Source of the DNA: a virus
Reading direction: 5' to 3' (one strand)
Virus record (IMG/VR): IMGVR_UViG_3300000980_000024
DNA length: 64,000 nucleotides
In this document: positions 17,130 through 39,315 of the stretch, piece by piece
How positions within the stretch are numbered: the stretch's first letter is position 1
Layout: the number at the start of each line of letters is the position of its first letter
Translations under genes and position numbers: made by a program
The notes under the pieces: generated by a model
What the model saw: the letters and a program-made list of their open reading frames with translations, nothing else
Told to the model about the DNA's origin: nothing
Databases searched by the model: none

Positions 17130-17130
17130 T

Positions 17131-19792: not shown

Positions 19793-19847
19793 TTCGATTT
19801 TCCGTCGTTATGTAATTTTTTCACACACTAACACATGAATTAAAACA

Positions 19848-19906: not shown

Positions 19907-19941
19907 TTACGAAATATCAAATAACCAACAACGGAGTTTTA

Positions 19942-20826: not shown

Positions 20827-20855
20827 TCTATTAATCAAACTAACGGAGAAAAATA

Positions 20856-21320: not shown

Positions 21321-22432
21321 TGGCACATGCATTCTTAGCGCCATCAGGCGCACACATTACTTTCAAGTGTGCCGCATCAGCGTTACGATCAATGCAAGTA
21401 AACGCCCGTATCGATCTGTTAAGTCAGGTCGGTGCGGAGTTTTACGGACTTGATAAAGAAGCGACTGATCGGTTTGAGATTAACCTATCACCTGACCAGA
21501 CTGCCGCAGAGGACGGTACGATTTATCATGAAGTGTTTGAAGAGTGTGTCGATAACGGCATTACGTCACCTAAAGATATACAACATATCATTGATCAACG
21601 TGATGACTTATCAAGTGGTGCTAAGACTGACGAGTTCATACATAAAAAATTAGTTCATTGTATCCAAGAGCAAATTCATTTCCTAGAAGACTGTGACTTC
21701 TTCGTTGTTGAAAAGAAAGTTAAGATAAAAGGGTTACCTCAGTTTGGGCACACTGACTTAGTGGCTGGTAAAGATCGTGTGATGTACATGCGTGACCTCA
21801 AAACTGGTCGTGTTGACGTACACGCTGAGGGTAACGAGCAACTTATGGTGTACGCTGTCGGTATCTTAGATGAAATGGGGTGGGATCGATTTGACACTGT
21901 CGAGATTAAACCACTAGGGTTACACTGGGAAGCTGACGAATGGGTTGTTGAGGTTGAGGACTTGTTGGTTTTTAAGAACGAAACAATGTTACCGGCCTTT
22001 ATGAATGCCTATTCTATAAACCCAACAGCTACACCAGGTGATCATTGTTTATACTGTGATGCTAAGATTCACTGTAAAGAATGGCAAGAAAAGTTTAAAG
22101 CTCTTGACAACGAATACTTTAAGAATAACGACATTAAAGAATGTGATAGTGATGAGTTAGTTAAGATGTTTCGTATGACCAAGCAAGCTGATCAACTAGG
22201 TAAAATATTAAACCCTGAGTTGTTGCAACGAGCTGAAGGTTTTAACCCACCTAAAAACATAGCTGTTGTAAAAGGTCGTCGTATCCAAAAGTGGAAAGAT
22301 GAAGCCGCTGCCGCTAAGAAAATAGGCGATGATAAATTTTACAAGAAAGAAGCCAAAAGCCCGAGCAATTTTGAACCTGCTCAGAAAGAAGGTTTATACA
22401 CTGAGACATTTGCGCGAGGTTATTTAAAATGA
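21320..22432 (+). CDS. DUF2800 / Cas4-like PD-(D/E)XK exonuclease
   Basis: HAFLAPS, GT..H, GHTD, DLKTG, NEQL..YA.G, PGDHCLYC. Confidence 0.8.
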   Translation: MAHAFLAPSGAHITFKCAASALRSMQVNARIDLLSQVGAEFYGLDKEATDRFEINLSPDQTAAEDGTIYHEVFEECVDNGITSPKDIQHIIDQRDDLSSGAKTDEFIHKKLVHCIQEQIHFLEDCDFFVVEKKVKIKGLPQFGHTDLVAGKDRVMYMRDLKTGRVDVHAEGNEQLMVYAVGILDEMGWDRFDTVEIKPLGLHWEADEWVVEVEDLLVFKNETMLPAFMNAYSINPTATPGDHCLYCDAKIHCKEWQEKFKALDNEYFKNNDIKECDSDELVKMFRMTKQADQLGKILNPELLQRAEGFNPPKNIAVVKGRRIQKWKDEAAAAKKIGDDKFYKKEAKSPSNFEPAQKEGLYTETFARGYLK

Positions 22433-22653
22433 TTCGCCGTAGTGACATCATTAAATGTGAGTTTGACTACGACAATAACACTATCGTGGTCAATGTTAAG
22501 TTACCTAATGGTGATAAAAAGTTTAAATCATTTAACATGAGCCATTTTCTACAAGGGTCTGGTTGTTATGTTGATCGCATTTTAAAACACATGAATGATA
22601 GCTTACTTAACGAACATATACGTAATCAATTAACTAAACATAAGGTTATTTAA
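22429..22653 (+). CDS. hypothetical protein
   Basis: 74-aa ORF with ATGA overlap. Confidence 0.55.
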   Translation: MIRRSDIIKCEFDYDNNTIVVNVKLPNGDKKFKSFNMSHFLQGSGCYVDRILKHMNDSLLNEHIRNQLTKHKVI

Positions 22654-22654
22654 A

Positions 22655-22855
22655 ATGATAAAAATCAACACCAGAGATGGTAGCACTGTATTAATTAACC
22701 CAATGCATGTTGTATCATTGAAAATAGATCAGTTAGAATTAGTCGTCACTGATGTAAACAACACAAGCTATGAATTAAGCTTCAGTTCGCAAACTGAGAT
22801 GGAGGATTCACTAGCTTTAATAAACGGGGTAAGTCCTACGATACAAATTAATTAG
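22655..22855 (+). CDS. small beta-rich hypothetical protein
   Basis: 66-aa ORF. Confidence 0.55.
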   Translation: MIKINTRDGSTVLINPMHVVSLKIDQLELVVTDVNNTSYELSFSSQTEMEDSLALINGVSPTIQIN

Positions 22856-22918
22856 AAAGAATTGGCTTAATGCATCTGCCAATAATAAACGGTGCAACTT
22901 TTAAAACTTTTGAAAATT

Positions 22919-23596
22919 ATGAAACATAATATTGAATTTAAAAAACTTTCCGACAACGCATTTATGTTAACGGGTCCGCAGATTTCTTTTCCTAACTTGT
23001 GGAAGCCGGGTAAATATAAAGGGGCGTTGAAACCAAACCTTGATACATCATTTATCATACCTAAGAAAGACATTGAGATTGTTAAACAGATCAATAAATT
23101 CTTAATTGCTGTAGCAAAGCAAGAGAATGGCAACGTTAAAAAATTGTCAGAGACGATGGATGTAAAATTAATCAAATCAAAGTCTGATGGTAAAGAAAAT
23201 GGTGATTGGGTGTTACGTACAACCAACTCATTTGAATACCCACCTAAGTTTGTAAACTTAAAAGGTGCAACAATTGAATACTCTGGTGGACCAACTAGTA
23301 ACGTACCGACTAACGTAACAGGCTTACTTCGCGCAGGTAATTACGTAAAGATTGTTGTCGCTTGTAACCCACAAACAATTGACAGTAAAGTAAAAGTCTG
23401 GACTAACCTTGATCGAATTCAGTTCTTTAAAGAAGGTCCTAACCTTGGTGGTGGTGTTGCTGATGACTTAGTCAAAGATGAGTTTGGTACAGTTGAGGGT
23501 GACTACGATATGGATGATTCACCATCTGAAGATGACGTATCACCCGACGAAGAGTTCGATGATGATGAGTTTGACGATGAGGAGTTAGATATTTAA
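22919..23596 (+). CDS. DUF2815-like single-stranded DNA-binding protein
   Basis: ISFPNLWKP, AGNYV, LDRIQFFKEG..LGGG; acidic tail; follows the DUF2800 gene. Confidence 0.75.
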   Translation: MKHNIEFKKLSDNAFMLTGPQISFPNLWKPGKYKGALKPNLDTSFIIPKKDIEIVKQINKFLIAVAKQENGNVKKLSETMDVKLIKSKSDGKENGDWVLRTTNSFEYPPKFVNLKGATIEYSGGPTSNVPTNVTGLLRAGNYVKIVVACNPQTIDSKVKVWTNLDRIQFFKEGPNLGGGVADDLVKDEFGTVEGDYDMDDSPSEDDVSPDEEFDDDEFDDEELDI

Positions 23597-23614
23597 CGGG
23601 GTGAGTTGAGTCTT

Positions 23615-23656
23615 TGGCGGCTTTATCAGTAATGGTTTGGTCGCCATTTTCTTTTT
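23615..23656 (+). terminator. intrinsic terminator after ssb
   Basis: TGGCGGC/GTCGCCA stem, inner ATCA-GTAA-TGGT hairpin, T-rich tail. Confidence 0.7.
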
Positions 23657-23674
23657 AACGGATTGAGGTGATGC

Positions 23675-25666
23675 ATGACTGACTGGGTCTACGATATTGA
23701 GGTGCTACCTAACACCTTTACTATGACAGCGTTGAATTCAAAGAATAAAAAGTTTTATGACTTTGAAATTTCACCGCGCAAGAATGAACTTGAACGTATA
23801 AAAAAGTGGATCAACTATATGATCTACAAAGATGATTGTCGCATGGTTGGTTTCAACAATGTCAGTTACGATTACCCAGTGTTACATAACCTCATGATGT
23901 TAAGTGGTTCAGCTAAGTATTTAACAAATGAAACATATTTGTTTTCAAAAGAAGTTATTGGTTCATCAAATAAAGGTGGGCTTGGTCGATTCAAATACAG
24001 AGTGTGGGAAAACCAAGTGCTCGTGCCCCAGATTGATTTGTTGCTAATACATCACTTTGACAACCCTGCAAGACGTACATCACTGAAGCGGTTACAGTAC
24101 AACATGCGCATGAACAACATCGTTGAGTTTGAATTAGACTTCGACAAAAGGTTGCGTAAATCACAAGAGATAACAGACTTACTAACATACAACCAACATG
24201 ATGTACACTCAACAGACTTATTTCTGGATGAGACACAAGATCAAATTAAATTCCGCGATTCGTTGAATGAACGATTCGAGGGGTACAATTTTTTAAACAT
24301 GAATGACACCAAAATTGGTGAGGTGTTCATGACTATTGAGATTGAGAATAAAGTTGGTAGACATGTTCTTTACGAAGAAGATGATAGAACCAAACGCAAA
24401 ACAAAACGCGATGTCATGAACATCGATGATTTAATTTTTGACACGATTGAATTTAAACACCCAGCATTTAATCGCGTACTAACTAAACTCAGAGGTATGA
24501 CCATTGAGTCAGTTGGTGGTAAGTTTGAATGGAGCACTGATGAGAATTTAATATCATGCACTGTCGATAACTTTCAGTTCGATGTGGGTAAGGGTGGTTT
24601 GCATGGTGCAAAGAAAAATTCAGTTTATGTTAGTGATGATGAGTATGTAATCGATGACCGCGACGTAACTTCATTCTACCCAAGTATCGGTATTGAATAT
24701 GGTTTGTATCCAGAACATCTGACACGTGCATTTGTCGAGGTTTACGGCGGTGTTAAAGAGATGAGACTTAAATACCCCAAGGGTACAACTGAAAACGCCA
24801 TGTTAAAACTGGCACTCAATGGCGCATATGGTAAAACAAATAGTGAGTTCAGTGTATTCTATGATCCAAAGTACACCATAAGTACAACCATTAATGGTCA
24901 GCTGTTACTTCTAATGTTGTGGGATAAATTACGCAGAGTACCAACAATCGAGATTATACAGGCCAATACAGACGGCCTAACTCTTTACTATCATCGTCAG
25001 TATACTGAGATGGTCGATAGGTTATGTGTTGAATGGGAGAAAGCAACACGAATGGATCTTGAACAAGTCATCTACAGTAAAATGTTTACTCGTGACGTAA
25101 ATAATTATTTGTGTGAATACGAAGGTGGTGGTACTAAACAGAAAGGCAGTTATGTATTTGAAGGTTTAGACTGGCATAAAAACTTTTCTCAACTAATTGT
25201 ACCAAGAGCAGCGGCTAATCATTTGATACACGGTACACCTATCGATAAGTTTATTAAGAGTCACGATGACATACATGATTTCTTTTTATGTACTAATGTT
25301 AATCGGGCAACCAAACTAACAGCGCGTGTACCTGAACAAGGTCGAATTGATATACCCTACGTTGACCCTGAAACAAACGAAGAACTTATTTACCCTACGT
25401 TTGACGCTAAGTATGACGACATTAAACAACGAACATCCCGTTATTTAATTACTAAGTCAGGTCATTCACTGTTTAAAATTATGAAGCCTACACCGACAAT
25501 GCTTCGTAAGGGTAACAACAACAATCGATACATCGGTATAAATAGTGACCAAGTAGCAACTATTTACAATAAAATACCTGACGGCATGAAACCTCAGGAT
25601 TGTAATATCGATTACGACTATTACATCGGGGAAGCTGAGAAACTAACGGAGTGTTTTAAACCATGA
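23675..25666 (+). CDS. family B DNA polymerase with 3'-5' exonuclease
   Basis: YDIE (ExoI), DVTSFYPS (A), KLALNGAYGK (B), ANTDG (C). Confidence 0.92.
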   Translation: MTDWVYDIEVLPNTFTMTALNSKNKKFYDFEISPRKNELERIKKWINYMIYKDDCRMVGFNNVSYDYPVLHNLMMLSGSAKYLTNETYLFSKEVIGSSNKGGLGRFKYRVWENQVLVPQIDLLLIHHFDNPARRTSLKRLQYNMRMNNIVEFELDFDKRLRKSQEITDLLTYNQHDVHSTDLFLDETQDQIKFRDSLNERFEGYNFLNMNDTKIGEVFMTIEIENKVGRHVLYEEDDRTKRKTKRDVMNIDDLIFDTIEFKHPAFNRVLTKLRGMTIESVGGKFEWSTDENLISCTVDNFQFDVGKGGLHGAKKNSVYVSDDEYVIDDRDVTSFYPSIGIEYGLYPEHLTRAFVEVYGGVKEMRLKYPKGTTENAMLKLALNGAYGKTNSEFSVFYDPKYTISTTINGQLLLLMLWDKLRRVPTIEIIQANTDGLTLYYHRQYTEMVDRLCVEWEKATRMDLEQVIYSKMFTRDVNNYLCEYEGGGTKQKGSYVFEGLDWHKNFSQLIVPRAAANHLIHGTPIDKFIKSHDDIHDFFLCTNVNRATKLTARVPEQGRIDIPYVDPETNEELIYPTFDAKYDDIKQRTSRYLITKSGHSLFKIMKPTPTMLRKGNNNNRYIGINSDQVATIYNKIPDGMKPQDCNIDYDYYIGEAEKLTECFKP

Positions 25667-26880
25667 TACTTTCTAAAGAACAAACCAAAGCGTACGATGA
25701 TGTTATGTTGTGGGCAAGTAACCCAGACAAACCTTACTTTGTCATTAAAGGGTTTGCTGGGACAGGTAAAACTTTTTTACTGTCACAAATAGTACGCAAC
25801 TACTCGGGTACTGATTTATTTTGTTGTGCACCTACCGCTAAAGCAGCCAGTGTCTTGATGGGTAAGCTGGAAAACGTTATGGTTACTACTATCCATGCCC
25901 TACTGTACCGCCCAGTGCCACCCAGTGACGCTGAGATGAACGGAATTAAAGATGAGTTACGTTTTGACCCAGATAACGAACGGCTACAAGAACTTTACGC
26001 TAACGCTGTCGAAGAGTTTAAAAAGCGAGAGGTCATGTTCCAGTTTGAGGGTGGTCACTTAGCCGGTACAAATTCATTAATTATTGTTGATGAAGGCAGC
26101 ATGGTGAATAATAACATCAGGGAAGACTTGATGAACTTAGGTTGCCGGGTGTTGTTTGTCGGTGATGACGGACAACTACCACCAGTTAAGTCAGCTGATT
26201 GGTTCCATGCTATTGACCCTGATGCACGACTAATTGAAGTACATCGTCAGGCATTAGAAAGCCCAATCATTCGGTTGTCAATGGATATACGCAGCGGTAA
26301 ATTACAGTCAAACCAATACACTAGCGATGATTGTCGGATCGTGCGCAAGAAACAAGTTAAAGTTTCTGAACTAATTAACTGTGACCAAATAATCACAGGT
26401 GCTAACGCTGAACGCCACAAGCTCAATCGATTGATTAGAAAAAAATTAAAACGCAACAGCGATCACCCAGTAAAAGGTGACAAACTAATTTGTGTCAAGA
26501 ATGATTTAAAGACTAGCCACATATTGTACGTTAATGGTGCACAAGCAATTGCTGCTTCTGACGCCATACATCGTGACGAATTTACAGCAACCATGGACGT
26601 AGAGTACGGTGGTCAGCTTGTTGAAGACTTAATGTATTATCGTTACCATACTGAAAACAATTACGATAAAGGTTCTGAGTCTTTAGATTGGCGAGAAATA
26701 TCACACTTGCAGCAATTTGATTACGCATACGCTGTAACGTGCCACAAGTCACAGGGTTCCGAGTGGGATAACGTAGTCGTGGTTGACGATAGAATGTTTG
26801 CGCATGACAAGGCTTTCCGTAGACGTTGGTTATATACAGCGGTGACAAGAGCTAAACAACAACTAACTTTAGTAAGGTGA
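25663..26880 (+). CDS. RecD/Dda-like SF1B helicase
   Basis: GFAGTGKT, IIVDEGSM, GDDGQLPPV, YAVTCHKSQGSEW, LYTAVTRA. Confidence 0.9.
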   Translation: MILSKEQTKAYDDVMLWASNPDKPYFVIKGFAGTGKTFLLSQIVRNYSGTDLFCCAPTAKAASVLMGKLENVMVTTIHALLYRPVPPSDAEMNGIKDELRFDPDNERLQELYANAVEEFKKREVMFQFEGGHLAGTNSLIIVDEGSMVNNNIREDLMNLGCRVLFVGDDGQLPPVKSADWFHAIDPDARLIEVHRQALESPIIRLSMDIRSGKLQSNQYTSDDCRIVRKKQVKVSELINCDQIITGANAERHKLNRLIRKKLKRNSDHPVKGDKLICVKNDLKTSHILYVNGAQAIAASDAIHRDEFTATMDVEYGGQLVEDLMYYRYHTENNYDKGSESLDWREISHLQQFDYAYAVTCHKSQGSEWDNVVVVDDRMFAHDKAFRRRWLYTAVTRAKQQLTLVR

Positions 26881-26883
26881 TTA

Positions 26884-27162
26884 ATGGGTGGTATTTCAGA
26901 TTGGCAACTACAACAAGGGTACATGTGTGACCCTGAGATTACGGGTTATAGTGATCGTGAAGATGATCAAGAAGTAACCTGCTCATTGGTCAAAGAAACA
27001 CGGAAAGCATATTTATTCGAGACTGATGGTGAACGGTTTTGGTGCCCCAAGTCAGCATGCCATTATGACGGACACGATACCGCTGTCATAGCTGGGTGGT
27101 TTGATATTAAGTTCCTGAAAAAACAAAATGATTTTGATAGTGAGTTTGGTGAGGTTAAATAA
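26884..27162 (+). CDS. hypothetical protein (ETRKAYL...W.PKS)
   Basis: 92-aa ORF, AAGGTG RBS. Confidence 0.65.
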   Translation: MGGISDWQLQQGYMCDPEITGYSDREDDQEVTCSLVKETRKAYLFETDGERFWCPKSACHYDGHDTAVIAGWFDIKFLKKQNDFDSEFGEVK

Positions 27163-27449
27163 TGGGTAACATAGAAATAGATATGTTCACTGACGGCGGT
27201 ACGATTTTTATTAAAAGAGAGTGTGTTGAGTTGTATATTAATTTTAGAGTCAACAGCCCTGATAAAGGTGCTCTTTATGATCAATATCCTTCTAGTGAAA
27301 TTGAACCAATTGACAAGATAACAAGTGATCAATTACTGTTACTTACAGATGTTATTGTTAAACAATTTCATGATCGAATTAATTCTGAAAACAGTAATAG
27401 GGAATTAATTCGATCAATGCACAAGGTATTAATAAAGTCAACCAACTAA
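27162..27449 (+). CDS. hypothetical protein
   Basis: 95-aa ORF, GAGG RBS. Confidence 0.6.
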   Translation: MGNIEIDMFTDGGTIFIKRECVELYINFRVNSPDKGALYDQYPSSEIEPIDKITSDQLLLLTDVIVKQFHDRINSENSNRELIRSMHKVLIKSTN

Positions 27450-27453
27450 AAAC

Positions 27454-27738
27454 GTGAAAGAAACCAATTTAGAACTACGTTGTCGAAAGCTGGCTGAACG
27501 AATGGGTTATGTGGTTTACAAAGGTGCTGGTCGTGATGGTGCTCCTGATAAAGTGTTCCTACGTAACGGCTTTGGATTCGTTGTTGAATTTAAGAAACCC
27601 AAGAAGTACCAGCAACACAATCAAAAAATAGAACAGGGTTACTGTGAGTCACGTGGTGTCAAATATTACGTTGTTAAAACACTAGAGGAAATGAGAGAGG
27701 TCTTGCTAGAGCAAGAAAAAATACATGCTGACACCTAA
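27454..27738 (+). CDS. VRR-NUC domain nuclease
   Basis: E..LE, G.PD, VEFKKP, Q; sits before the SNF2 gene. Confidence 0.8.
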   Translation: MKETNLELRCRKLAERMGYVVYKGAGRDGAPDKVFLRNGFGFVVEFKKPKKYQQHNQKIEQGYCESRGVKYYVVKTLEEMREVLLEQEKIHADT

Positions 27739-29179
27739 GAACTTACACCCTGAGCAATTGTCTTGTTACAAAGACATATTGAAAAAGAAAGTATTCTGTA
27801 TAACTAGTGACTGTGGGTTCGGTAAAACTATTTCAATCCTCACAGCTTTTGTTGTGATGAAGAAAAAGTATCCTGACCGTAAATTACTGGTAGTGTGTAC
27901 ACCAATGGGTGCAAAAAAGACATGGGTTAAAGAGCCGACCAATTGGACGCACACTAAACACTTAAAAGTATTGTCACTGAATAATCTTAAACCCAACCAA
28001 CGAGAAGTTGAGTTAAATAAAAACCAGCACGATATATACGTCATTAGTTATCAGATGCTTGGATGGTTGTTAGAAAACAATAAAACGGTTAAGTTTGACT
28101 TTGTTGCTGGTGACGAAGCGGATTGTTTAAAAGGTCCGAGTTCAGTATGGCGTGATCAATTAATTAAGTGTGCGCCAAGTGTGGTCTATAAAATACTTGC
28201 GTCAGCTACACCCAAGACTCGTGAAGAAGATGATTACTGGGGATTGTGTAAATATTTAGATGATGGCAAGTCGCTGAACGCCGAGACAGTGACTGAGTTT
28301 AGGGCTAGATATTGTAAGTCATACACCCACAAGAATCGAACCATTTATAAAATTGGTAACAAAAAACAGATCGCTGACTTAGAAAATCGAATACGTCATT
28401 TGTTTATTAACTATGACACCACGACACAGTCACAAATACCAATCAAAACAATTACAGTCAACGCCGAACTCAGTGACAGTTCCCGCGAAATATATGATCG
28501 GTTAGTTAGAGAACAATGTGTCAACTCTATTGTGTACGACGATGACGGTTACCGTGATGATGATGAATCATTGGACGCAATGACGCTGAGTGGTAAGTTA
28601 TCCCAACTGTCTTGTGGTTTTTTATATATTGACGAGAATATACGCATTACTGCTGACATGTTAGAACAAGCCACAAGTATTCCAAAACTTTTGGATGATA
28701 CGACTAAAAAAATACCTGTGGATATATTCGATGATCGGATTGTTAAGTTTGGTAAATTAATTAATGTACTCCATGAACGTCACGAAGATACCCCAATAGC
28801 CATACCGTACCATTACAAACATGAACTTACACAACTAGAAGGGTTATTACCCACTGGTGTTCGTGACACTGAGCCAGATTTCGAGGAACGATGGAACGAC
28901 AAAGATATACCGTACCTTTTCTTGCAGTACATGAGATCCAGTAAATCACTCAATATACAAGACGGTGGTAATGTTATGGCGTTCTACAGCCCCACATGGT
29001 CGTGGGCTGACGACTACCAGATCATAAGACGTCTAGCCCGACAAGGTCAGTCGGCTAAGATGGTGTACGCTTATCGCCTGTACATGAAAGGTACTATCGA
29101 TGACAACAAAACACGCAAACTAACTGATCGATTTATTGGTCACTCTCGGTTTCAGAATTCGATAATTCATCGGGTTTAG
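27725..29179 (+). CDS. SNF2-like SF2 helicase
   Basis: DCGFGKT, GDEAD, SATP, GKLSQL, SLNIQ, RLARQGQ. Confidence 0.8.
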   Translation: MLTPKNLHPEQLSCYKDILKKKVFCITSDCGFGKTISILTAFVVMKKKYPDRKLLVVCTPMGAKKTWVKEPTNWTHTKHLKVLSLNNLKPNQREVELNKNQHDIYVISYQMLGWLLENNKTVKFDFVAGDEADCLKGPSSVWRDQLIKCAPSVVYKILASATPKTREEDDYWGLCKYLDDGKSLNAETVTEFRARYCKSYTHKNRTIYKIGNKKQIADLENRIRHLFINYDTTTQSQIPIKTITVNAELSDSSREIYDRLVREQCVNSIVYDDDGYRDDDESLDAMTLSGKLSQLSCGFLYIDENIRITADMLEQATSIPKLLDDTTKKIPVDIFDDRIVKFGKLINVLHERHEDTPIAIPYHYKHELTQLEGLLPTGVRDTEPDFEERWNDKDIPYLFLQYMRSSKSLNIQDGGNVMAFYSPTWSWADDYQIIRRLARQGQSAKMVYAYRLYMKGTIDDNKTRKLTDRFIGHSRFQNSIIHRV

Positions 29180-29393
29180 CTTCATCATCTTCAGCGGTTT
29201 CAACAGCAATTGAGTACAAATATTCAATTACCGACATATAAAATACGACCAACGCAAGGATGACAGATGCTAATTTGGGTGGTAGAATGATTGAAACTAA
29301 TGATAGTATCATTGCTCCTAAAAAGAATTTACTTGGTGGGATTATTTGAACTATTTTTCCGAGGTATTTAATCATGGGTTGTGGATGCTCCAA
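29133..29393 (-). CDS. putative two-TM membrane protein with acidic C-tail
   Basis: Two hydrophobic helices; lone antisense gene; start may be 29375. Confidence 0.45.
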   Translation of the reverse strand: MEHPQPMIKYLGKIVQIIPPSKFFLGAMILSLVSIILPPKLASVILALVVFYMSVIEYLYSIAVETAEDDEAKPDELSNSETESDQ

Positions 29394-29541
29394 AAAAAAT
29401 CAGGCTGATAAACATAAAGTTGCTGCAAATGCAGCTAAGAAAGCAAGCACTCAAGCTGTTGTAGATCAAGCTATTAAGAGTGCGCAAAGCAATATTAACA
29501 TATCTAACTACGCTAGAGAAATTAAAGCTCTACAAAAATAA
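29374..29541 (+). CDS. small basic protein MGCGCSKKNQ... (55 aa)
   Basis: Read by hand; GAGGT RBS; TAA abuts the ATG at 29542. Confidence 0.65.
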   Translation: MGCGCSKKNQADKHKVAANAAKKASTQAVVDQAIKSAQSNINISNYAREIKALQK

Positions 29542-30057
29542 ATGACAGCAGTCACTACAACGGAATTACATCAAGTAAGTGGGTTGTTAGCAGCAGTACC
29601 CAGTTGGTTAGATAAAGCTTTACTTGTCGAGAAAGAAATTGGTATGGATAATATCTATGCCATGATTTCAAATGGTCAAGCTGTAGAAAGAATCGCCGCG
29701 TCACTGTACATAACAAAAGAACAAATGAAGTTCATGTTGACTCGTACACCCAAACACCGTAAAGATTACATGAATGCCCGTGCGTTTAAACAAGCTGAGA
29801 GCAGCATGGATGTACTTGAGAATCCTTCATTTAAAACTGCTGGGATGTTAATTAAAGAACAGGCAAGTGCTGCTAAGCATCACAATCAAGTCATTGATCG
29901 TGCAATGAACACATTAAATAAAAGCGATGAGGCTAAAGCGAATGAAGCTATCATCGTTAACAACACAGTAGTTGTGAGAGATTCAGACGACATCGCACCT
30001 CTACCCGATGAACTTAAAGATATTATGGAAGGAGAGTTTGAAGATGTTAGTTCTTGA
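29542..30057 (+). CDS. putative terminase small subunit
   Basis: HTH-like N-terminal half then helical region; upstream of terL. Confidence 0.5.
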   Translation: MTAVTTTELHQVSGLLAAVPSWLDKALLVEKEIGMDNIYAMISNGQAVERIAASLYITKEQMKFMLTRTPKHRKDYMNARAFKQAESSMDVLENPSFKTAGMLIKEQASAAKHHNQVIDRAMNTLNKSDEAKANEAIIVNNTVVVRDSDDIAPLPDELKDIMEGEFEDVSS

Positions 30058-30265
30058 ACGTAAGTTAGAGAAAAGCGTGTTAGTTGGTGCAGGTGAAGAT
30101 GAGGTTAAAGTTACGGTACTTGGTGTAACTGAAGACCCGTTAACTGGTGAGGTTAGTGTGAAGCTGGGGTTTATTGGAGGTAAGCACATTTGTATTGATC
30201 GGGAAGAAGTAAGACCCAAGCGTAACGAACGGATAAAGAAGATACTAAATGGTACAAACTCTTAA
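30044..30265 (+). CDS. csrA: CsrA-like RNA-binding protein
   Basis: MLVLERKLEKSVLVG...VKVTVLGV....VKLGF.GGKHICIDREEV; ATG 30044 after GGAG. Confidence 0.75.
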   Translation: MLVLERKLEKSVLVGAGEDEVKVTVLGVTEDPLTGEVSVKLGFIGGKHICIDREEVRPKRNERIKKILNGTNS

Positions 30266-31949
30266 TAGAGAACACTTTGTTGACCCGTTTTTTGACGAGG
30301 CCATAAATCAAATATTTTTAAATCCCAATAAGTCAGCCTATTTTATGGATGGCACTATTGGTGTGGGTAAGTCATCTCAATTCTTAATGCCTTGCGCGTA
30401 CAACATTGCGTCGCTAGTAGAACCTCAGTTAGTAAACAACAAACAAGTAAGAGAAAGTAAGTGGTTAGCTATTCGTGAAAGTGGTGCAGCAACTGTAGCA
30501 ACAATTGAGCAGTTACTTGAGTCTATATTTTCTAATGGTGTACTGAGTCGAGACGATACACCTGTTAAGAAATACGGATCTCACCCGACATACATTGAAG
30601 TAAAGCATAAGCTGATGGACGATACTCATATTAAAATGGTTATTGAGTGTCACGGTTTTAATGATGAAAGATCGCTGGGTCGTATAAAAAGTAGAGAGTA
30701 TCTTGGTGCAATTATACCTGAATTACAAACAGTACCCTACCCTGTTATCGAAACAGCCATTGAACGTTGTGGTCGTTGGCGCACCGAAGAAACAACAATC
30801 AGTAAAGTTATTGACGGTAAAAAATACACGTTATCTGGTGTGCAAAAACTGTGTACTGTCTTAGGTGACATCAACATACCTAAACGAGATCACCCATTGT
30901 ACTCTAAGTATTACGACTTATCGGCAAAGCAAAAGGATGAGTCTGAAATATTAATGATTACCCCGCCTCCACCATTAATTCACAAATTAGTTTCAAGTCT
31001 TGACGCTGAGAAAGTTAAAAAAATAATTGCTTCTGGGTTGGGTAAAATTACCAGGTTCGAGGGTAAAGAAACGCTTTGGTATCCCAACCCTAAAGCGTAC
31101 AACATGACTCGCCACTATGAGGAACGGGACGACGATGGTAACCCTATACCGTGGTCAGGTTACCAGTATTGGTTATCACGATTAAACAGAACTGACAGTT
31201 ATGTGAGGCGGTTTATTATTGGGATACCTGACTCAGTTGGTGGCCAAGCAGCTGTTTATAAATCGTTTGACCGCAATTCAATGGTTAAAGAACGAACATT
31301 GTTGCACGATGAACCTGTATGGTTAGGGTTTGATCCGGGCGGTAATTCTGCAGCAGAGATGCTTCAATATTACCCAGATGGAAAAAACATACATTTCTTT
31401 AAAGAGTTTACCACTGAGGCCACTGAAGGAATATCAACCCGCATGTTGTTCCGTAATTTTATATTACCGTACTGCAGAACAGAGCTAAAGGGCAAGGTAG
31501 TTAAAATTGTTCCTGACCCAGCAGCTACTACACTTGGTAAGAACATTAGTTCTGGTGCTACCGAGTCATTATGGTTACAAATTAAAGACGAGATTGATAA
31601 GGAGATGTCAAAACACAGCAGTGTGGTCTATGAACTCATACCATGTATGGTTAATAATCAGAACACTAGTGCTCGTATTGACTCACTTGGGTACATGATT
31701 GAACAAAATTCATGTACTGTTAGTGAAGATTGCGGTAAGTTAGTTAGTGCATTAACTGGTGGTTACAAGTATATTGAATTGAAATCAGGCGCCATATCAG
31801 ATAATATTGACAAACATAATCCGTTCTCACACCCAGCTGAAGCGGCGCAATATCCTGTTGTAAACATATTATGGGCGATCAGGAAACATGGTAAAAGACA
31901 AACAAACAAAAGCCGTAAGGCCTACACCATCAGGCACGTTAGAAGCTGA
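30249..31949 (+). CDS. terL: terminase large subunit
   Basis: DGTIGVGKS Walker A, IIPE Walker B-like, LGFDPG nuclease, SHPAEAAQY. Confidence 0.8.
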   Translation: MVQTLNREHFVDPFFDEAINQIFLNPNKSAYFMDGTIGVGKSSQFLMPCAYNIASLVEPQLVNNKQVRESKWLAIRESGAATVATIEQLLESIFSNGVLSRDDTPVKKYGSHPTYIEVKHKLMDDTHIKMVIECHGFNDERSLGRIKSREYLGAIIPELQTVPYPVIETAIERCGRWRTEETTISKVIDGKKYTLSGVQKLCTVLGDINIPKRDHPLYSKYYDLSAKQKDESEILMITPPPPLIHKLVSSLDAEKVKKIIASGLGKITRFEGKETLWYPNPKAYNMTRHYEERDDDGNPIPWSGYQYWLSRLNRTDSYVRRFIIGIPDSVGGQAAVYKSFDRNSMVKERTLLHDEPVWLGFDPGGNSAAEMLQYYPDGKNIHFFKEFTTEATEGISTRMLFRNFILPYCRTELKGKVVKIVPDPAATTLGKNISSGATESLWLQIKDEIDKEMSKHSSVVYELIPCMVNNQNTSARIDSLGYMIEQNSCTVSEDCGKLVSALTGGYKYIELKSGAISDNIDKHNPFSHPAEAAQYPVVNILWAIRKHGKRQTNKSRKAYTIRHVRS

Positions 31950-33954
31950 GGTTAATTTATTATTCACACAAGCCGTATCTTATCGTGATTCGGTTGGTGT
32001 CACTCCCTCCCTGCAACTAGGGTATGTCAGAGAACTGATTGGTTCAGGTGAAGACTATACTGAGTTCGTAAACCTAAATAAAAACGGTAAAGATTGTGAT
32101 GTGCCAGAACCATGTAACTGTGGTGAAGGTCAGGAATGTAATCAATGCTCACCACATTTAGAAAACGTATGTTCTGTTGAGGACGCTGTTGGTTTATGCA
32201 ACAACATGTCACCGTTTGATGGCGTGGCCAATCTGTTAGCAACAGTTAAAAAGTACGAATACATCGCATTAATGGAAGATGCTTACGCCGAGACAGGTGA
32301 TAAACCATTTAAACTAAAACCTACCATTCAAGCAGCACCTACCCAAGCACAAAAAGATGAAGCGGCTAACGCTATGTTTGAGCAAGTTGATTCTTTTTTA
32401 TCTGAGAATAATGTGCGCCTTAATGAATTACCATTTGTTTTTGGTGAAGGTGACCTTACCGAAATCGTTAAATCGCTATCGTCGAGCGTTAAACAACAAG
32501 CTGACTCTGACTTACATGATTCTACTGAGCAAGTTGAGGCAGCATTAAAACTAACATTTACTCGCGCCAATTTTATGCGTGAGTACATGGAAGTAATTAA
32601 AGACACCACCAATAAACCAATCGGTATCCTATGGGTGGACGATAAAACAATTAAAAAAGAAACCAGTGTTAAAAGCGGTAAGCTTGCTATTAATTACTCA
32701 ATGCAGTGTGACGCTAAAAGAATAGACCCTTGTTATTTTTGGGCAACTCAAGACTATGAATTAAATCGTGTCGGTCAAGCTGTGTTTAAGTTAGAACAGT
32801 ACACCAGTGGTGACATACATCGTTGGTTAGAATATACCAAGTCTAATCAAATCAAACAAAACATTAAAGATTACTTGCATGATTACAAAAAAACAGGCTA
32901 TCGAATGTACGAAGCTATGTTATTCCGTGATCATTTTACACAGCAAGATTTAAATTTTGATGTGCTAGTTTCTCGTGGGTATTATTCTCGTGAAGCTGTC
33001 GAAGAACTAAAATTAGAAATTCCTGAGATTTACGACAAAGAGAACATGCTACCTTGTGAAGTTTTTATTTCTGGTGGTATGATTCTTAAAGCCCGAGTGT
33101 TCCCGTGTATTGATGATGAGTTGGGTGTATACACAACGTTATTCCGTCGTAAGTCACAAAGTATTTTCGGTTATTCGTTGCATGATTTTATTTACCCGTT
33201 CACTAAGTTGTATGAAGGTTCAATCCAAGCAATCGACAAAGCTATGGGTAAAAGTGTTGGTTCAATTGTCCAAGTGGATACAGGTGTAATCGAAGACCCA
33301 ACCAAGTACATCAAGAAAAACGAAGCTACAGGTGAAGTAACGTTAGATCTTTCTAATGATTTGATTATTGAGTTTGATTCTACACAAGCAATTATGTCAC
33401 CTAACTTTAAAGGTGTACCCATCCATGTGACACAGTTACCCAGTGATTTAGAAAAGTTATTGCCGGTAGTAGATTTTGTTTTTCAACAGTTAGAAAAAAT
33501 TAGCGGTATTGAAAGCATACTAGTTAGCAGTAGTAGTATTTCATCTGCATTACGAACTGATAGTAACTTCAATGCTGCGTTTAAATCATCAGCCAAATCA
33601 GTCAAGTCTCTATTCCGTGAGAGTGAAAATCGAATACTGATTAAAGCAGTTAAGTTTATATTCATGGCCAAGGCAATGAGTGATGACCTAAGTGATTACT
33701 TGATTGACGCTGAACCCGAGATACTTCTATCTGACACGTTGAGCCGAGAAGCTGGTGATGATCAGAAGTTACTTCAAGGAGTTACTACGATGATGCAGTT
33801 AGGTGGCGACCTTATATCACAAGATCAAATGGCTGCATTGTTAAACCGTGTGGGACGTGAGGTATTTAATTTTACTGAGGACTTAATACCAGGTGTCGAA
33901 CCATTAGAAGTTTCTACTGTGTCGACACCTTCGGCTTCAGAGATTACAGCTTAG
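31888..33954 (+). CDS. probable portal protein with a Cys-rich N-terminal insertion
   Basis: 688 aa, directly after terL, largely helical. Confidence 0.65.
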   Translation: MVKDKQTKAVRPTPSGTLEAEVNLLFTQAVSYRDSVGVTPSLQLGYVRELIGSGEDYTEFVNLNKNGKDCDVPEPCNCGEGQECNQCSPHLENVCSVEDAVGLCNNMSPFDGVANLLATVKKYEYIALMEDAYAETGDKPFKLKPTIQAAPTQAQKDEAANAMFEQVDSFLSENNVRLNELPFVFGEGDLTEIVKSLSSSVKQQADSDLHDSTEQVEAALKLTFTRANFMREYMEVIKDTTNKPIGILWVDDKTIKKETSVKSGKLAINYSMQCDAKRIDPCYFWATQDYELNRVGQAVFKLEQYTSGDIHRWLEYTKSNQIKQNIKDYLHDYKKTGYRMYEAMLFRDHFTQQDLNFDVLVSRGYYSREAVEELKLEIPEIYDKENMLPCEVFISGGMILKARVFPCIDDELGVYTTLFRRKSQSIFGYSLHDFIYPFTKLYEGSIQAIDKAMGKSVGSIVQVDTGVIEDPTKYIKKNEATGEVTLDLSNDLIIEFDSTQAIMSPNFKGVPIHVTQLPSDLEKLLPVVDFVFQQLEKISGIESILVSSSSISSALRTDSNFNAAFKSSAKSVKSLFRESENRILIKAVKFIFMAKAMSDDLSDYLIDAEPEILLSDTLSREAGDDQKLLQGVTTMMQLGGDLISQDQMAALLNRVGREVFNFTEDLIPGVEPLEVSTVSTPSASEITA

Positions 33955-33956
33955 TA

Positions 33957-34043
33957 TTACTTCTTTTTCTCAGCTTCTTTCTTTGCTTTCTTTAAAGCTT
34001 TGCTATTTTTAACTGCTTGAGCGTGTGGGTTTTTAGTAGCCAT
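33957..34043 (-). CDS. 28-aa lysine-rich peptide MATKNPHAQAVKNSKALKKAKKEAEKKK
   Basis: Read by hand; AGGAG RBS and its own promoter. Confidence 0.6.
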   Translation of the reverse strand: MATKNPHAQAVKNSKALKKAKKEAEKKK

Positions 34044-34085
34044 TATGACTCTCCTATTTAAAATTAAAAAAAAAATTGTAGAATT

Positions 34086-34113
34086 ATTGTATTAGATTCT
34101 AAAATTTAGTCAA
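34086..34113 (-). promoter_or_regulatory. sigma70-type promoter for the basic peptide
   Basis: TTGACT-N16-TACAAT on the minus strand. Confidence 0.6.
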
Positions 34114-34125
34114 GTTGGTTGGGTT

Positions 34126-35253
34126 TCAATCTACCATTGCTGGTATGTAACCACTTGATGTTAACTCAGCATCAAAGTTATTAACGTTCTCAGTGAGACG
34201 AGCAACCATTTGATCCCTGAAGCCATCAGCAGCTACAGCTAACTCACTAGACTTATTGTCAGCAACTTTACCACCATAACCATCGTCAACAAATAATGTG
34301 TCTCTAAATGATTTGTTGCGGTCATACAGGTATAACGATGTGTCACCTCCTTTCCACCGACCAGCATAACTAGCCTCTTTAATGGGGTACTTTTGATAGA
34401 GTGGACCGAACGGGCTGTTGTTAATATTTTGATCCAGTGTCAATAGTTTGGTTTCATCACCACTACGCATCATTCCCCTGAACCCTTCTTCATCCCGAAA
34501 AAAGTTGTTGAAGTGACTAATGTATGGTCTTATGCGGTTCCATGCGTCAACATATTCAGGGTGCGCTTCTCTGTTCCAGTTGGCCACCCAATAAACATCA
34601 GTAGTTTTTAGCGTACCAAGCTTATCTTTCATCCCATCGATAGCGTTAGCGAGGGTAATGATAGACCCCCATATCTCGATGACCAACCGTTCGCCATCTC
34701 GATTGGCTTGTTGTATTTCGTTGCGATAAAATTGAGCACCTTTTTCTGACGTGTATACAGGGTACTGTTTGTACAATGGTGATACTTGAGTGTTCAGCTC
34801 GGCTAACCGAGACTCAATGTGTGTCTTGGCTGTACTGCGTGTACTATCAACTGTAGATATAATGCCAAGTAAGTCCCAACGTAATCGTATGTAACTGGCT
34901 AAAGTGACACCTAGTGTGTGATAATCATCAGGGTCACCAGTTGAATGCATGTCAGTATCGATGATACGTCGGTGGTCATATGTCACAATAGGTACATCGG
35001 GTACCGGACCATCAACACCGAGGTAAGGTTTACGCCCCTCTTCTCGGCCCGATGTATCGTAGTGTGTCCACGCGTCAGCACCTGCTGTGGCAACATCTGG
35101 ATTCATCGATAAATATAAAGCGGCGTCAAACCAATCAGGTATAACAGAGGTTACATTCAGTTCATCTCTAGTGTCATCTTTAGTCATCTCATACAGTAAA
35201 CCCAGCACAATAAGTACGGCCAATACTGCTAATACAATTTGTGTAGTTGTCAT
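34126..35253 (-). CDS. membrane-anchored nucleoside-hydrolase-like (DUF1593/Sde182-like) protein
   Basis: N-terminal TM; FDAALYLSMNPDV...HY...G..EGRKP module; IIDTDMHSTGDPDD; LVIEIWGS; VYWV. Confidence 0.65.
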   Translation of the reverse strand: MTTTQIVLAVLAVLIVLGLLYEMTKDDTRDELNVTSVIPDWFDAALYLSMNPDVATAGADAWTHYDTSGREEGRKPYLGVDGPVPDVPIVTYDHRRIIDTDMHSTGDPDDYHTLGVTLASYIRLRWDLLGIISTVDSTRSTAKTHIESRLAELNTQVSPLYKQYPVYTSEKGAQFYRNEIQQANRDGERLVIEIWGSIITLANAIDGMKDKLGTLKTTDVYWVANWNREAHPEYVDAWNRIRPYISHFNNFFRDEEGFRGMMRSGDETKLLTLDQNINNSPFGPLYQKYPIKEASYAGRWKGGDTSLYLYDRNKSFRDTLFVDDGYGGKVADNKSSELAVAADGFRDQMVARLTENVNNFDAELTSSGYIPAMVD

Positions 35254-35265
35254 TCGTTGCCCCGT

Positions 35266-35625
35266 TTAGTTTGTTGGTTGTTGACTAGGTGTACACCAGT
35301 CAGGAAGATTGATAAGTTGGGTGCCTTTGCTGGATACCCAAATAGTTTGCTGATGTTGCTCCACTCGATAACACCTATCTCTGTCAATGTATTGAATCGT
35401 TGACAGTAGTTCTTTATAGCAATCCTCGAAGTCACCAACGACTTCAATCGGTTTACTACATCTAGGTGTTGCTATCATCTGCTCAACGTCCCAATACAAA
35501 GTGCTCGGTATCTTAGGGGGTTCTTCTCTTAACGATGACGTTATTCGATAACCATCGTTCCAAGCACACCCACTAATAAATAGGCTTGCGAGAATCAGGC
35601 ACAGGTACTGGCTGACATTCCACAT
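35266..35625 (-). CDS. lipoprotein, probable o-spanin (Rz1-like)
   Basis: LFISGC lipobox, Pro-rich, several Cys; overlaps the 3' end of the Rz-like gene. Confidence 0.6.
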   Translation of the reverse strand: MWNVSQYLCLILASLFISGCAWNDGYRITSSLREEPPKIPSTLYWDVEQMIATPRCSKPIEVVGDFEDCYKELLSTIQYIDRDRCYRVEQHQQTIWVSSKGTQLINLPDWCTPSQQPTN

Positions 35626-35983
35626 AATCTTGCTCCGTTGCGTTTAAATTTTCAGAAGATAAATAAGATTCTTTCTCTGCTTTGTACTCACCCATCTTAG
35701 CCCAAGCATTGTTGCGTTGATCGATAACTTCTTCTCGACTTTTTTGCAATGCTGTAACACTGAGTTCCAATCTGTCCGACGTGCTTCTCTCATCTCTCAA
35801 TACAGTCTCTATTGCAACAAGAGCAGACTTTAAGTCAGCGACATCTGATTTACTTTGTTTTAGTGTCTCACGTAAGTTATCGGCACTACCTGAGTACCAC
35901 CAAGCGAAACTAATCGGTACTACAAAAGCTAAAACCTTAATAGCTTTCCACCAGAAACTAACTGTTGATAGTGTAGCCCACAT
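35573..35983 (-). CDS. probable i-spanin (Rz-like)
   Basis: N-terminal TM, long coiled coil, C-terminal C.PVPVP. Confidence 0.7.
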   Translation of the reverse strand: MWATLSTVSFWWKAIKVLAFVVPISFAWWYSGSADNLRETLKQSKSDVADLKSALVAIETVLRDERSTSDRLELSVTALQKSREEVIDQRNNAWAKMGEYKAEKESYLSSENLNATEQDYVECQPVPVPDSRKPIY

Positions 35984-36861
35984 TATATTGTCACTATATT
36001 GCCATCATTAGTTGAACACACCGACGTCACGCCGTTGACATCGAATAACAAACTAGTCGGGTCAGCAATTTCATCTTCAAACGCTTCGCGTACTGTGTAC
36101 CCCTGAACCGTACAACTAGCAGCGTCAAATACTTCAGTACTACCCTCTACATCGTTAGATGCTGTTAACTGAACATCAGCGTCTTTCGTACCGATACCAC
36201 CAGCCTCATCGTAGTTACCTGATTCAGTAATTGTAGCCCCATTATCAGCTTCTTGTGATGATGTAATGGCTCGATTACCATCACCATTTATTACAGTCCG
36301 GTTACCTGCACTACCAGCGATGGCACTCAACCCCGCTGTTGCGATTTCAGCTGTAGTGTTCTGACCGTTGATACCGTAGGCAAGCCCACCAACAATACCT
36401 AATGCTGTAGGGATGATAGACATACGTGCTTTACTTCGCTCAGTCTTACCCTTTTCTTGGGCAATCGCTACGTCATTACTGTTAGTGCCCATATTGGTGC
36501 AAGGTTGTGTGTCGGGTTTATTTGCTGCGGTAATTGCTTTGTTTGATTCAACAAGTGCGTTAGCCATCATAAATATTGCTAAGTCACCCGCTGATAACCC
36601 AGCCGGTATTTGCATACTAGATGATTTGTTGATTACTGCTTGTGTATCCCAGCACTTACCTGTTGCATTTGCAATGGCAATGTCAGCACTAACCTTTTGA
36701 GACTGAATGAACTCATTGCTGGTTAATGTTTGCTCAGTCTCGGTCATGATCACTTGCCCGTTGACACCATGTGTCGTTGTGCTTTTAATGGTTGACCTGT
36801 TTGATATTGAACATGCGGATAATATTGCAGTGAGTAGCAATAACGTAACTATTTTTTTCAT
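35983..36861 (-). CDS. lipoprotein with internal Gly/Ala-rich hydrophobic segment
   Basis: MKKIVTLLLLTAILSAC lipobox; ALGIVGGLAYG...AGLSAIAG. Confidence 0.75.
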   Translation of the reverse strand: MKKIVTLLLLTAILSACSISNRSTIKSTTTHGVNGQVIMTETEQTLTSNEFIQSQKVSADIAIANATGKCWDTQAVINKSSSMQIPAGLSAGDLAIFMMANALVESNKAITAANKPDTQPCTNMGTNSNDVAIAQEKGKTERSKARMSIIPTALGIVGGLAYGINGQNTTAEIATAGLSAIAGSAGNRTVINGDGNRAITSSQEADNGATITESGNYDEAGGIGTKDADVQLTASNDVEGSTEVFDAASCTVQGYTVREAFEDEIADPTSLLFDVNGVTSVCSTNDGNIVTI

Positions 36862-36904
36862 GTGATCTCTCTATTTTATTGGTAATTACCACATAATTTA
36901 CCAC

Positions 36905-37579
36905 CTAGTTGCAAATTTTTCCACCCATCTCACTAAACAAAGGTTGGTATCTGCTAATGTGATGACGATATGCGTAGTTTTCAGCACATGCTCTGATCGA
37001 TCTACGGCGACCATTGGGTAAAATATCCACGCCACATATGGATTCAGCCGATTCAAACGACATAATTGGTGCGGCTCTTAGTTCCCATACACACCACCAA
37101 CCACCGTTATACCGGCACTCATCAACGGCCTTGTTATCACAGTAATTATCGAAAGGTTCTATGTCCATGTATTGATTCATTGCCTCTGAGCAGGGTACAG
37201 CCCAGTACGGGTCCATCGGGTCACCCTCCCCGAGATGCGCACAATATGACCTTTGCGCTGTGTCCACAGTGGGTTGTGTGAATTGCATTAAACCTAACCC
37301 ACCATACGGACTTTCAGCGTATTGATTACCTTTACTTTCCACCCACATCTGAGCCATTGATCGGCTAGGGTTTTCAAAGTCCTCGAACAAGTGTGAGTAT
37401 TTTTGGGCGTTAACAGGTAATGTGTTGACTATTTTTTGTTTTGGTGGATCACTGACAACTACAGTTGATGCTTCCTCAACAGACTGTGTGTCAGGTGACC
37501 ACAGCGAAGCACAGCGAACCAATGCAGTAATTATAATTAATACTATTGCGATACAACAATAGCGATAGCGATTATCCAT
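36905..37579 (-). CDS. lytic transglycosylase (SLT-like) endolysin with N-terminal TM
   Basis: QMWVES.G, GLGLMQF..PT, YNGG; signal-anchor/SAR-like N-terminus. Confidence 0.8.
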   Translation of the reverse strand: MDNRYRYCCIAIVLIIITALVRCASLWSPDTQSVEEASTVVVSDPPKQKIVNTLPVNAQKYSHLFEDFENPSRSMAQMWVESKGNQYAESPYGGLGLMQFTQPTVDTAQRSYCAHLGEGDPMDPYWAVPCSEAMNQYMDIEPFDNYCDNKAVDECRYNGGWWCVWELRAAPIMSFESAESICGVDILPNGRRRSIRACAENYAYRHHISRYQPLFSEMGGKICN

Positions 37580-37845
37580 ATTGCCATTATCCCCACACTT
37601 AACGGTCCAATTGTTTTTTGATTGGTTTTACTGTCTTGTTCTGACTCACACACCTCATGAGTCCTGATGTGGTTGAACACTCGACTACCTAAGTACAATA
37701 TTACCAGATCAATAATTATATTTCCGTGATCAAGTACCGCTGTCCAGAACCAAGCATTATCAACGTTGCGTACATGGCCAGATGTAAATACTGTATACAT
37801 CATGGTAAGACCAATACCTATTACTATAAACCAAATTACTCTCAT
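37543..37845 (-). CDS. three-TM membrane protein, candidate holin
   Basis: Three hydrophobic segments, immediately upstream of the endolysin. Confidence 0.55.
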   Translation of the reverse strand: MRVIWFIVIGIGLTMMYTVFTSGHVRNVDNAWFWTAVLDHGNIIIDLVILYLGSRVFNHIRTHEVCESEQDSKTNQKTIGPLSVGIMAIWIIAIAIVVSQ

Positions 37846-37848
37846 TCG

Positions 37849-38334
37849 CTAACCTTCCACATTTTTAAATATTACTATTTGAACTCTACGATTACAGGCC
37901 CTGCCGTCCGATGTTGAGTTATTACATTCAGGGTATTGACTACCATACCCCTTAACGTCTATTCGATCTATATGATAACCATGACGGACTATCTCTTTAG
38001 CTACATTACTAGCTCTGCGTAATGATAATCTTAAATTAAAATTGTCATTACCTACGTCATCAGTGTGCCCCTCAACATAAAGTAGTCGATTGGTAAAATC
38101 AGAACTTAGTACTCCCGCAACTTCACTAACTATTATCCTAGAAGATTCCATCATCTGATCATCACCCATTTCAAACATGGGGTCTTCAAAAAACAAAACA
38201 GCTAAACCTTGTTTATTCTTAACCTGCACACCTGACACATATTTTAATTTCTCATCTAGTATTACAAAATCATCATTAATTAAAGTCTTACATGCTGGTA
38301 GATATAGCAGGAGTCCCAATAGAACATACTTCAT
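37849..38334 (-). CDS. OmpA-family peptidoglycan-binding lipoprotein
   Basis: LPAC lipobox; VEGHTD..G....N..LS.RRA..V; GYG...P; NRRV. Confidence 0.9.
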   Translation of the reverse strand: MKYVLLGLLLYLPACKTLINDDFVILDEKLKYVSGVQVKNKQGLAVLFFEDPMFEMGDDQMMESSRIIVSEVAGVLSSDFTNRLLYVEGHTDDVGNDNFNLRLSLRRASNVAKEIVRHGYHIDRIDVKGYGSQYPECNNSTSDGRACNRRVQIVIFKNVEG

Positions 38335-38345
38335 ACTCTTGCAGG

Positions 38346-38696: not shown

Positions 38697-38709
38697 TTTT
38701 ACCCCCAAG

Positions 38710-39285: not shown

Positions 39286-39315
39286 GTTAATACCTAAATT
39301 ATTTAGTTTGTTAAA

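Follow-up and report, generated by a model that had tools for sequence, protein, structure and literature searches.

Why would a phage keep a gene for a CsrA-family RNA-binding protein between the two genes of its terminase, and which RNAs would such a protein read? The question arises in a 64,000-nt stretch of viral DNA (hereafter, the window), for which a first-pass annotation had proposed that a CsrA-like gene, the third of its kind in the window, stages the translation of the structural genes. The window begins with early genes on the plus strand (1–16.5 kb), which are followed by replication genes and by a plus-strand packaging operon (29374–33954) that converges with a long minus-strand operon of virion and lysis genes (34126–61799). 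The packaging operon contains the following genes:

29374..29541, plus strand, small basic CxC protein, first gene of the operon; present in most relatives
29542..30057, plus strand, probable terminase small subunit (TerS), 171 aa; assigned by position, retention in 11 relatives, and a structural match
30044..30265, plus strand, terL-linked csrA, 73 aa; assigned by Pfam PF02599, PHROG 9500, the structural model, and conservation in 12 of 12 relatives
30249..31949, plus strand, terminase large subunit (TerL), 566 aa; assigned by PHROG 10250, tblastn to cultured TerL, and an invariant Walker A region
31888..33954, plus strand, portal by position and size, 688 aa; found after terL in every relative, 34–73 per cent identical

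The product of 30044–30265 is a real CsrA-family protein. It matches the Pfam CsrA family (PF02599) with 31.9 bits against a cut-off of 27, as well as PHROG 9500, and its model (pLDDT 93) is predicted to fold into strands beta1–beta5 plus a helix, as in the CsrA family. The top 12 PDB rows for this model are all CsrA or RsmE (TM-score by target 0.62–0.80, E-value 0.005–0.24), and a profile of the terL-linked subfamily matches solved CsrA chains with an E-value of about 1e-12. The equivalent of the RNA-binding residue Arg44 is kept as Arg53 and is invariant in 22 sequences, and the N-terminal RNA-contact positions and position 46 read E5, R6, K7, and E46. The ATG of csrA lies within the C-terminal codons of terS (a 14-nt overlap) and is preceded by the Shine–Dalgarno (SD) sequence AAGGAG, while its 3' end shares 17 nt with terL; an upstream in-frame ATG at 30008 is unused in relatives. 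The upstream neighbor encodes a helix-turn-helix, further helices, and a C-terminal beta-strand motif, an architecture that, together with the position before terL, fits TerS. Its best structural match is Sf6 TerS (3hef; Z = 5.5, rmsd 2.1, 53 residues aligned), which is modest and within the range of common arrangements, and we regard the protein as probable TerS. The placement of a CsrA-like gene inside the packaging operon, between terS and terL, was thus borne out by the family matches, the TerL match, and the TerS-like neighbor. Divergent from this operon lies a small membrane-protein gene (29133–29312, minus strand), which is kept in L001, L003, L004, L017, L018, and L019 and has a TCGGA 50 nt upstream of its probable start.

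Two readings of the locus itself were rejected. Fusion of csrA with TerS or TerL by frameshift or read-through conflicts with the csrA/terL junction, whose reading frame and spacing are variable. There is also no support for autoregulation of the packaging operon: a conserved CsrA site was sought at the terS, csrA, terL, and portal starts and not found, and the GGA triplets at these starts vary and follow from coding (Met-Asp/Glu).

Among the capsid, portal, and TerL proteins, only TerL has a match to cultured phages (22 per cent identity to a cultured TerL in tblastn). Neither capsid nor portal has a match among the cultured phages of the phage collection, and the portal candidate also has no family match in Pfam or PHROG. 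No prophage was detected in GTDB genomes scanned with TerL and capsid alignments, and single-protein locus scans returned no matches. By these comparisons, the phage belongs to a lineage that is unrelated to Lessievirus and has no cultured member.

The csrA–terL pair is conserved throughout the relatives that we assembled from TerL homologs, which represent 12 distinct lineages (TerL 41–71 per cent identical, 38–51 per cent GC). In all 12, csrA lies just upstream of terL: ten have the order terS–csrA–terL, one has a 52-aa open reading frame (ORF) after csrA, and in one (L016) terS is displaced by an insertion sequence, with csrA still adjoining terL. In the subfamily, Leu2, Leu4, and Arg44 are invariant, Thr5, Arg6, Arg7, and Glu46 are variable, and the C-terminal helix is extended, with its own conserved motif DRxxVRxxRxxRI. 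The gene is under purifying selection, with a dN/dS of approximately 0.10 in the closest pair (L007 and L014); dS is saturated in the others.

Several of these relatives have peculiarities of their own. The closest one encodes, at the same place, a 131-aa internally duplicated CsrA (P0072, L001:5710-6105), and the window protein aligns with the start of its repeat 1 and the end of its repeat 2. L016 (7710-9357 and 1-2394) is probably a phage-plasmid of this clade: besides a Rep3 replicon gene and a RelB/YafQ pair, it has an IS200/IS605 element in the place of terS. The TerL homologs P0010 and P0012 (L017:10001-12706) are about 335 aa longer, and one has a faint LAGLIDADG match, which suggests an intein. 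A ROS/MucR regulator gene at L015:3965-4387 is a possible hint to the host group of L015.

Two further CsrA-like proteins are encoded among the early genes, of which two small ones are also tandemly duplicated at 2272–2972 (165 nt at 81 per cent and 69 nt at 96 per cent identity):

11580..11876, plus strand, early single-chain CsrA, 98 aa (beta1–4 plus beta2–5-helix); Pfam match of 57.7 bits in two stretches
15758..16039, plus strand, divergent single-chain CsrA-fold protein, 93 aa; Atlas model with a TM-score of 0.83 to a PF02599 cluster

The first is a chain of two partial repeats in which R6, R7, R44, and E46 are kept, and its CsrA identity is evident from sequence. The second has no Pfam or profile match and no Arg44 equivalent, and its predicted structure gives it a CsrA likeness at the level of fold only; the description of the packaging gene as a third paralogue holds with this qualification. 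The complete relative G001 (76 kb) has a single CsrA, the terL-linked copy, and no 11580-type protein, and a joint role of the three paralogues is therefore not supported. Because the terL-linked gene is present in all 12 lineages and is the sole copy in G001, it belongs to the core genes; the early paralogues look accessory, the latter on the evidence of one complete genome. G004, a distant and incomplete record that is not clearly a relative, gave no CsrA match. The suggested heterodimers with host CsrA also lack support. Both early paralogues are single-chain pseudo-dimers, which, to judge from known dimer architecture, would offer one RNA-binding surface and no free partner interface; heterodimers of either with host CsrA are thus unlikely.

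If the terL-linked protein reads the phage's own late mRNAs, its sites should be sought in the leaders of the virion operon, for which the following features are relevant:

57153..58193, minus strand, major capsid protein, 346 aa; Atlas feature with structure matches to phage capsid clusters (TM-score 0.65–0.68)
58194..58307, minus strand, major capsid leader; promoter TTGACA-N17-TATGCT, GGA at −62, −51, and −29 from the ATG, SD GAGGT
61800..61880, minus strand, leader of the first late gene (492 aa); promoter TTGACA-N18-TATGAT, GGA at −42 and −22, no SD
40815..40950, minus strand, leader after the gene of a 2226-aa virion protein; two candidate promoters (−35 at 40950 or 40908), TCGGA at −57 and −38
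47616..47669, minus strand, TAGGA and two TCGGA upstream of the 2226-aa gene and inside the preceding coding sequence

The GGA motifs that had been quoted for the three leaders (58194–58271, 61800–61850, and 40815–40885) are all present there. Of the five best late-strand matches to the sigma-70 consensus, three belong to these leaders, and a non-exhaustive look within the window recognized no late sigma factor or phage RNA polymerase. In each, two or three GGA lie between promoter and SD, upstream of the ribosome site and never on the SD, and all three have at least two GGA with spacing within 10–63 nt, the range over which CsrA can bridge (PMC7652899). At 47616..47669 (minus strand), the sequence TCGGACTTAAC is identical to the proximal site of the capsid leader. 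The TAGGAT at 40885 may be a −10 box outside the transcript. Further along the minus strand, 62365–62500 contains at least four GGA (ACGGAG, TCGGA, TAGGA, and TGGGA) upstream of 62364, part of which may be covered by an uncalled short ORF from near 62471.

GGA is enriched beyond chance in the window: its four late intergenic leaders contain nine copies versus 2.6–4.1 in shuffles. TCGGA is the top k-mer 24–110 nt upstream of late starts, where nine of its 16 copies fall versus 1.67 expected (P-value = 8e-6, or approximately 0.01 after Bonferroni correction). The canonical ANGGA form, which the first-pass annotation had expected to be enriched, accounts for only one of the leader GGA versus 0.8–1.2 expected from shuffles, and in the late leaders of relatives for five versus 4.7–5.1; this expectation was not borne out. 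Genome-wide, ANGGA is depleted (237 versus 380), in line with rare GGA glycine codons.

Equivalent leaders of relatives also have paired GGA behind sigma-70-type promoters. In L027 and L028, the capsid leader combines TTGACA-N17-TAnnnT with GGA at −66/−35 and −56/−32, respectively; GGA at −43 and −31 also precedes the L028 homolog of the first late gene. After the giant virion gene, L004, L016, and L017 have two or three GGA and L018 has one, and L003 lacks any outside the SD; several G001 leaders are also without a GGA pair. Taken together, 11 equivalent leaders (a set in which the gene after the G001 giant ORF is not an orthologue and is included conservatively) contain 17 GGA versus 7.9 expected, and seven of the 11 have at least two versus 1.7 expected. 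In paired leaders, the nearest GGA is 22–43 nt upstream of the start, and no site overlaps the SD or start codon. Among the 64 trimers, GGA ranks first in late promoter UTRs (12 versus 3.5; 7 versus 2.1 without the window). When the late intergenic gaps of relatives are taken without selection, the excess of plain GGA is marginal (22 versus 16.6, P-value of approximately 0.08–0.09), and TGGA in their late intergenic leaders is clearly in excess (16 versus 5.4–7.8, P-value of 0.002 or less). YGGA, a wording of the motif that was chosen after inspection, occurs 17 times in late versus seven times in non-late leaders of relatives (P-value = 0.001), and its reverse complement has no copies in their late intergenic leaders, which is a strict strand bias. 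The enriched motif is therefore YGGA (TCGGA in the window and TGGA in relatives) and not canonical ANGGA. Two unrelated marine phages used as controls have three intergenic GGA in 805 nt and none in 460 nt. The leaders do not align outside the promoter and motif and have no conserved helix.

Presentation of GGA in hairpin loops, as had been suggested, is not supported. In predicted folds of late leaders, the sites are mostly paired or in open chain, and few are in hairpin loops; the exceptions are the L028 leader of 3055 and the G001 capsid leader, where an AUGGAG hexaloop sits on a 5-bp stem (−6.1 kcal/mol, predicted), the one clear case and in a distant relative. The AATACT/AGTATT stem described for 40815–40885 exists, but the predicted fold pairs its GGA rather than presenting it in a loop, and the SD of this leader is base-paired in that fold. 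At L028:2962-3054, 43 nt before a secreted-protein gene, lies a 12–13 bp hairpin with a loop that contains CUGGACA. At G001:61277-61339 (minus strand), the short leader behind a sigma-70 promoter contains TCCTCC, which can pair with the GAGGA SD of the same leader and would make it another late leader with a hidden ribosome site.

A separate pattern concerns ribosome-binding sites:

2261..63134, eleven dispersed ACGGAG ribosome-binding sites, before 2279, 4546, 12903, 17129, 19942, 20856, 25663, 35625, 56309, 58951, and 63122

The many ribosome sites noted earlier as (A/T)ACGGAG are real, since 11 of the 17 genome copies of ACGGAG lie in SD windows. They read AACGGAG or GACGGAG, never TACGGAG, and seven of them precede early or replication genes, three late genes, and one a gene at the genome end; they are thus not supported as late targets. 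The shorter ACGGA makes up 16 of 49 SD-window GGA versus 26 of 419 in coding DNA (P-value = 4e-7), and 11 of these 16 sites belong to early or replication genes. As a feature of the clade, the bias was rejected: the corresponding count is 6 of 157 in relatives (2 of 21 and 2 of 35 in control phages), and G001 favors AAGGAG. The ACGGAG bias is a phenomenon separate from the late-leader motif and may reflect repression by the early or host CsrA, or only a lineage habit.

How do the conserved gene and the late leaders fit together? Our leading hypothesis, to which we give about even chances, is that the late leaders are the targets of the terL-linked CsrA, which would thereby set the time of virion synthesis. 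The protein would be a phage-owned RNA-binding dimer that controls how the phage's own late mRNAs are translated or how stable they are. Late operons would be read from host sigma-70-type promoters that, if active as predicted, fire from the start of infection, and within the predicted leaders of 45–80 nt two or three GGA lie 10–31 nt apart. Translationally coupled to terS and terL, csrA would accumulate with the packaging motor, after the replication genes, and by bridging two GGA sites CsrA would switch the synthesis of capsid, tail, and ejection proteins. Virion operons with host-type promoters need a timing device, and a CsrA made with the terminase would supply one. Among the observations that count against this late-leader reading are that csrA is present in every relative, which leaves no csrA-less phage for contrast, that the GGA pair is missing from L003 and several G001 leaders, that the leaders fail to align beyond promoter and motif, and that conservation is lost at Thr5, Arg6, Arg7, and Glu46. 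Of the earlier proposal that a phage CsrA stages structural-gene translation, the core gains support from the relatives, in the csrA beside terL in 12 of 12 and the paired GGA behind sigma-70 promoters in equivalent leaders; its ANGGA sites, hairpin loops, ACGGAG late targets, joint paralogue role, and heterodimers do not.

Activation appears somewhat likelier than repression, given that none of the candidate sites covers the ribosome-binding site, which is predicted to be occluded in some leaders. In four leaders after the giant gene, the ribosome site is occluded by a predicted 8.6–10.3 kcal/mol. Footprints placed on GGA open these leaders by 3.8–5.2 kcal/mol versus 2.6–3.4 kcal/mol with random footprints, and capsid leaders change little; this effect is weak relative to random footprints, and our preference for activation is therefore slight.

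The main difficulty is the motif itself. In A(N)GGAX, the A is recognized through the protein backbone and is reported to be required and not substitutable (PMC4005645), yet most of the sites are TTGGA, TCGGA, or CTGGA. The sites may be read by another factor, or the subfamily may have a shifted motif preference, as its altered residues would allow. That the sites mostly lack the A of ANGGA suggests a shifted specificity (YGGA), which host CsrA would read poorly.

The deviation from the canonical motif is also in keeping with a phage CsrA that acts on host RNA, such as host Csr targets, defense-system mRNAs, or Csr small RNAs, while host CsrA or some other factor reads the late GGA pairs. The CsrA proteins of mobile elements are usually proposed to act in this way (PMC11879866, PMC7366521), and the plasmid protein RsmQ, as outlined in PMC9928087, takes global control of its host. 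We nevertheless think this explanation unlikely. It would be unusual for a host-takeover gene to stay at one position of the packaging operon in lineages of 38–51 per cent GC, and the A(N)GGA that host CsrA is expected to require shows no enrichment. The ACGGA excess at ribosome sites points to a different target, namely that CsrA proteins repress early and replication genes at ACGGA(G) and so end replication-phase translation when packaging starts. The sites are canonical ANGGA overlapping the SD, mostly at early or replication genes, but they are single and unstructured, and relatives keep the terL-linked gene without the bias; such repression, if real, would sit better with host CsrA or with the accessory early CsrA (11580), and overall we hold it to be distinctly improbable.

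Still less probable, in our judgment, is domestication, in which the protein would be no regulator but a structural or accessory component of the packaging machine or the virion. Its tight coupling to terL, its own C-terminal helix (DRxxVRxxRxxRI), the loss of N-terminal RNA-contact residues, and the detection of one CsrA peptide in purified JC1 virions (PMC9144972) are in keeping with such a role; the invariance of Arg44 and the absence of any fusion to TerS or TerL in 12 loci are not, and the leader motifs would be left unexplained. We rate lowest the idea that the YGGA pairs, independently of CsrA, act at the level of DNA or transcription as operator, pause, or antitermination sites beside late promoters, or that they are partly due to chance. 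In favor of this idea, promoters lie a short way upstream of the pairs, one TAGGAT is a possible −10 box, relatives show marginal enrichment of plain GGA, and the numbers are small, but the strict strand bias, the lack of dyad symmetry, and 10–31 nt spacings without helical phasing argue against it.

Returning to the late-leader reading, a bolder version, which we put forward as rather doubtful, is an orthogonal Csr switch in which a terminase-coupled CsrA with a YGGA preference turns on the translation of virion mRNAs made from constitutive host-type promoters, replaces a late transcription activator, and is insulated from host CsrA. If true, the altered specificity would be unexpected, since the backbone is considered to fix the motif, and would provide a useful orthogonal translational switch. 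The common assumption is that phage CsrA manipulates the host; the alternative, control of a phage's own late translation, becomes testable here with a 73-aa protein and three short leaders, since both the gene and its candidate targets are conserved.

Phage csrA genes as such are already known (PMC7366521, PMC9144972, PMC11879866) and occur in approximately 1 per cent of phage genomes (PMC7366521); no RNA target of a phage CsrA is described in the searchable literature. New here is that the order terS–csrA–terL is fixed in a separate lineage and that its late sigma-70 promoters are followed by paired motifs of non-canonical form. PTXU04_00028, whose knockdown leads to smaller plaques (PMC11879866), and the CsrA proteins of 30 csrA-carrying phages (RsmM and others; PMC7366521) are likewise phage-encoded homologs, but the searchable literature describes no targets, mechanism, or terminase linkage for them. 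The Lessievirus (Bcep22-like) CsrA, for example JC1 gp47 (PMC9144972), is similar in that a CsrA-like gene of putative function is kept in a podophage head-morphogenesis module, although there it lies between the portal/scaffold and capsid genes rather than between terS and terL.

Compared with cellular CsrA/RsmA/RsmE (PF02599; PDB 2jpp, 1vpz, and 2bti), the phage protein has the same five-strand plus helix fold and keeps Leu2, Leu4, Arg44, and the equivalents of Val42 and Ile47, and its candidate targets are paired GGA within bridging distance. It differs in that His43 is replaced by Asp and Tyr48 by Arg in 12 of 13 sequences of the subfamily, in the variability at positions 5, 6, 7, and 46, and in its longer loops and C-terminal helix. 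The candidate sites are mostly YGGA rather than ANGGA hexaloops and are not on the SD, and a search against Rfam gave no match and thus no Csr small RNA. In repressed leaders of the glgC and hcnA type, unlike in those of the phage, sites lie on the SD or start codon. The closer parallel is with activated leaders (Escherichia coli ymdA, moaA, and flhDC and Pseudomonas aeruginosa phz2; PMC7652899), in which two sites lie upstream of the SD and, for ymdA and phz2, activation is known to proceed by opening an SD hairpin. Some of the phage leaders, with their predicted occluded SD, resemble these, with the differences that the candidate regulator is phage-encoded, the targets are virion genes, and the opening effect is weakly predicted.
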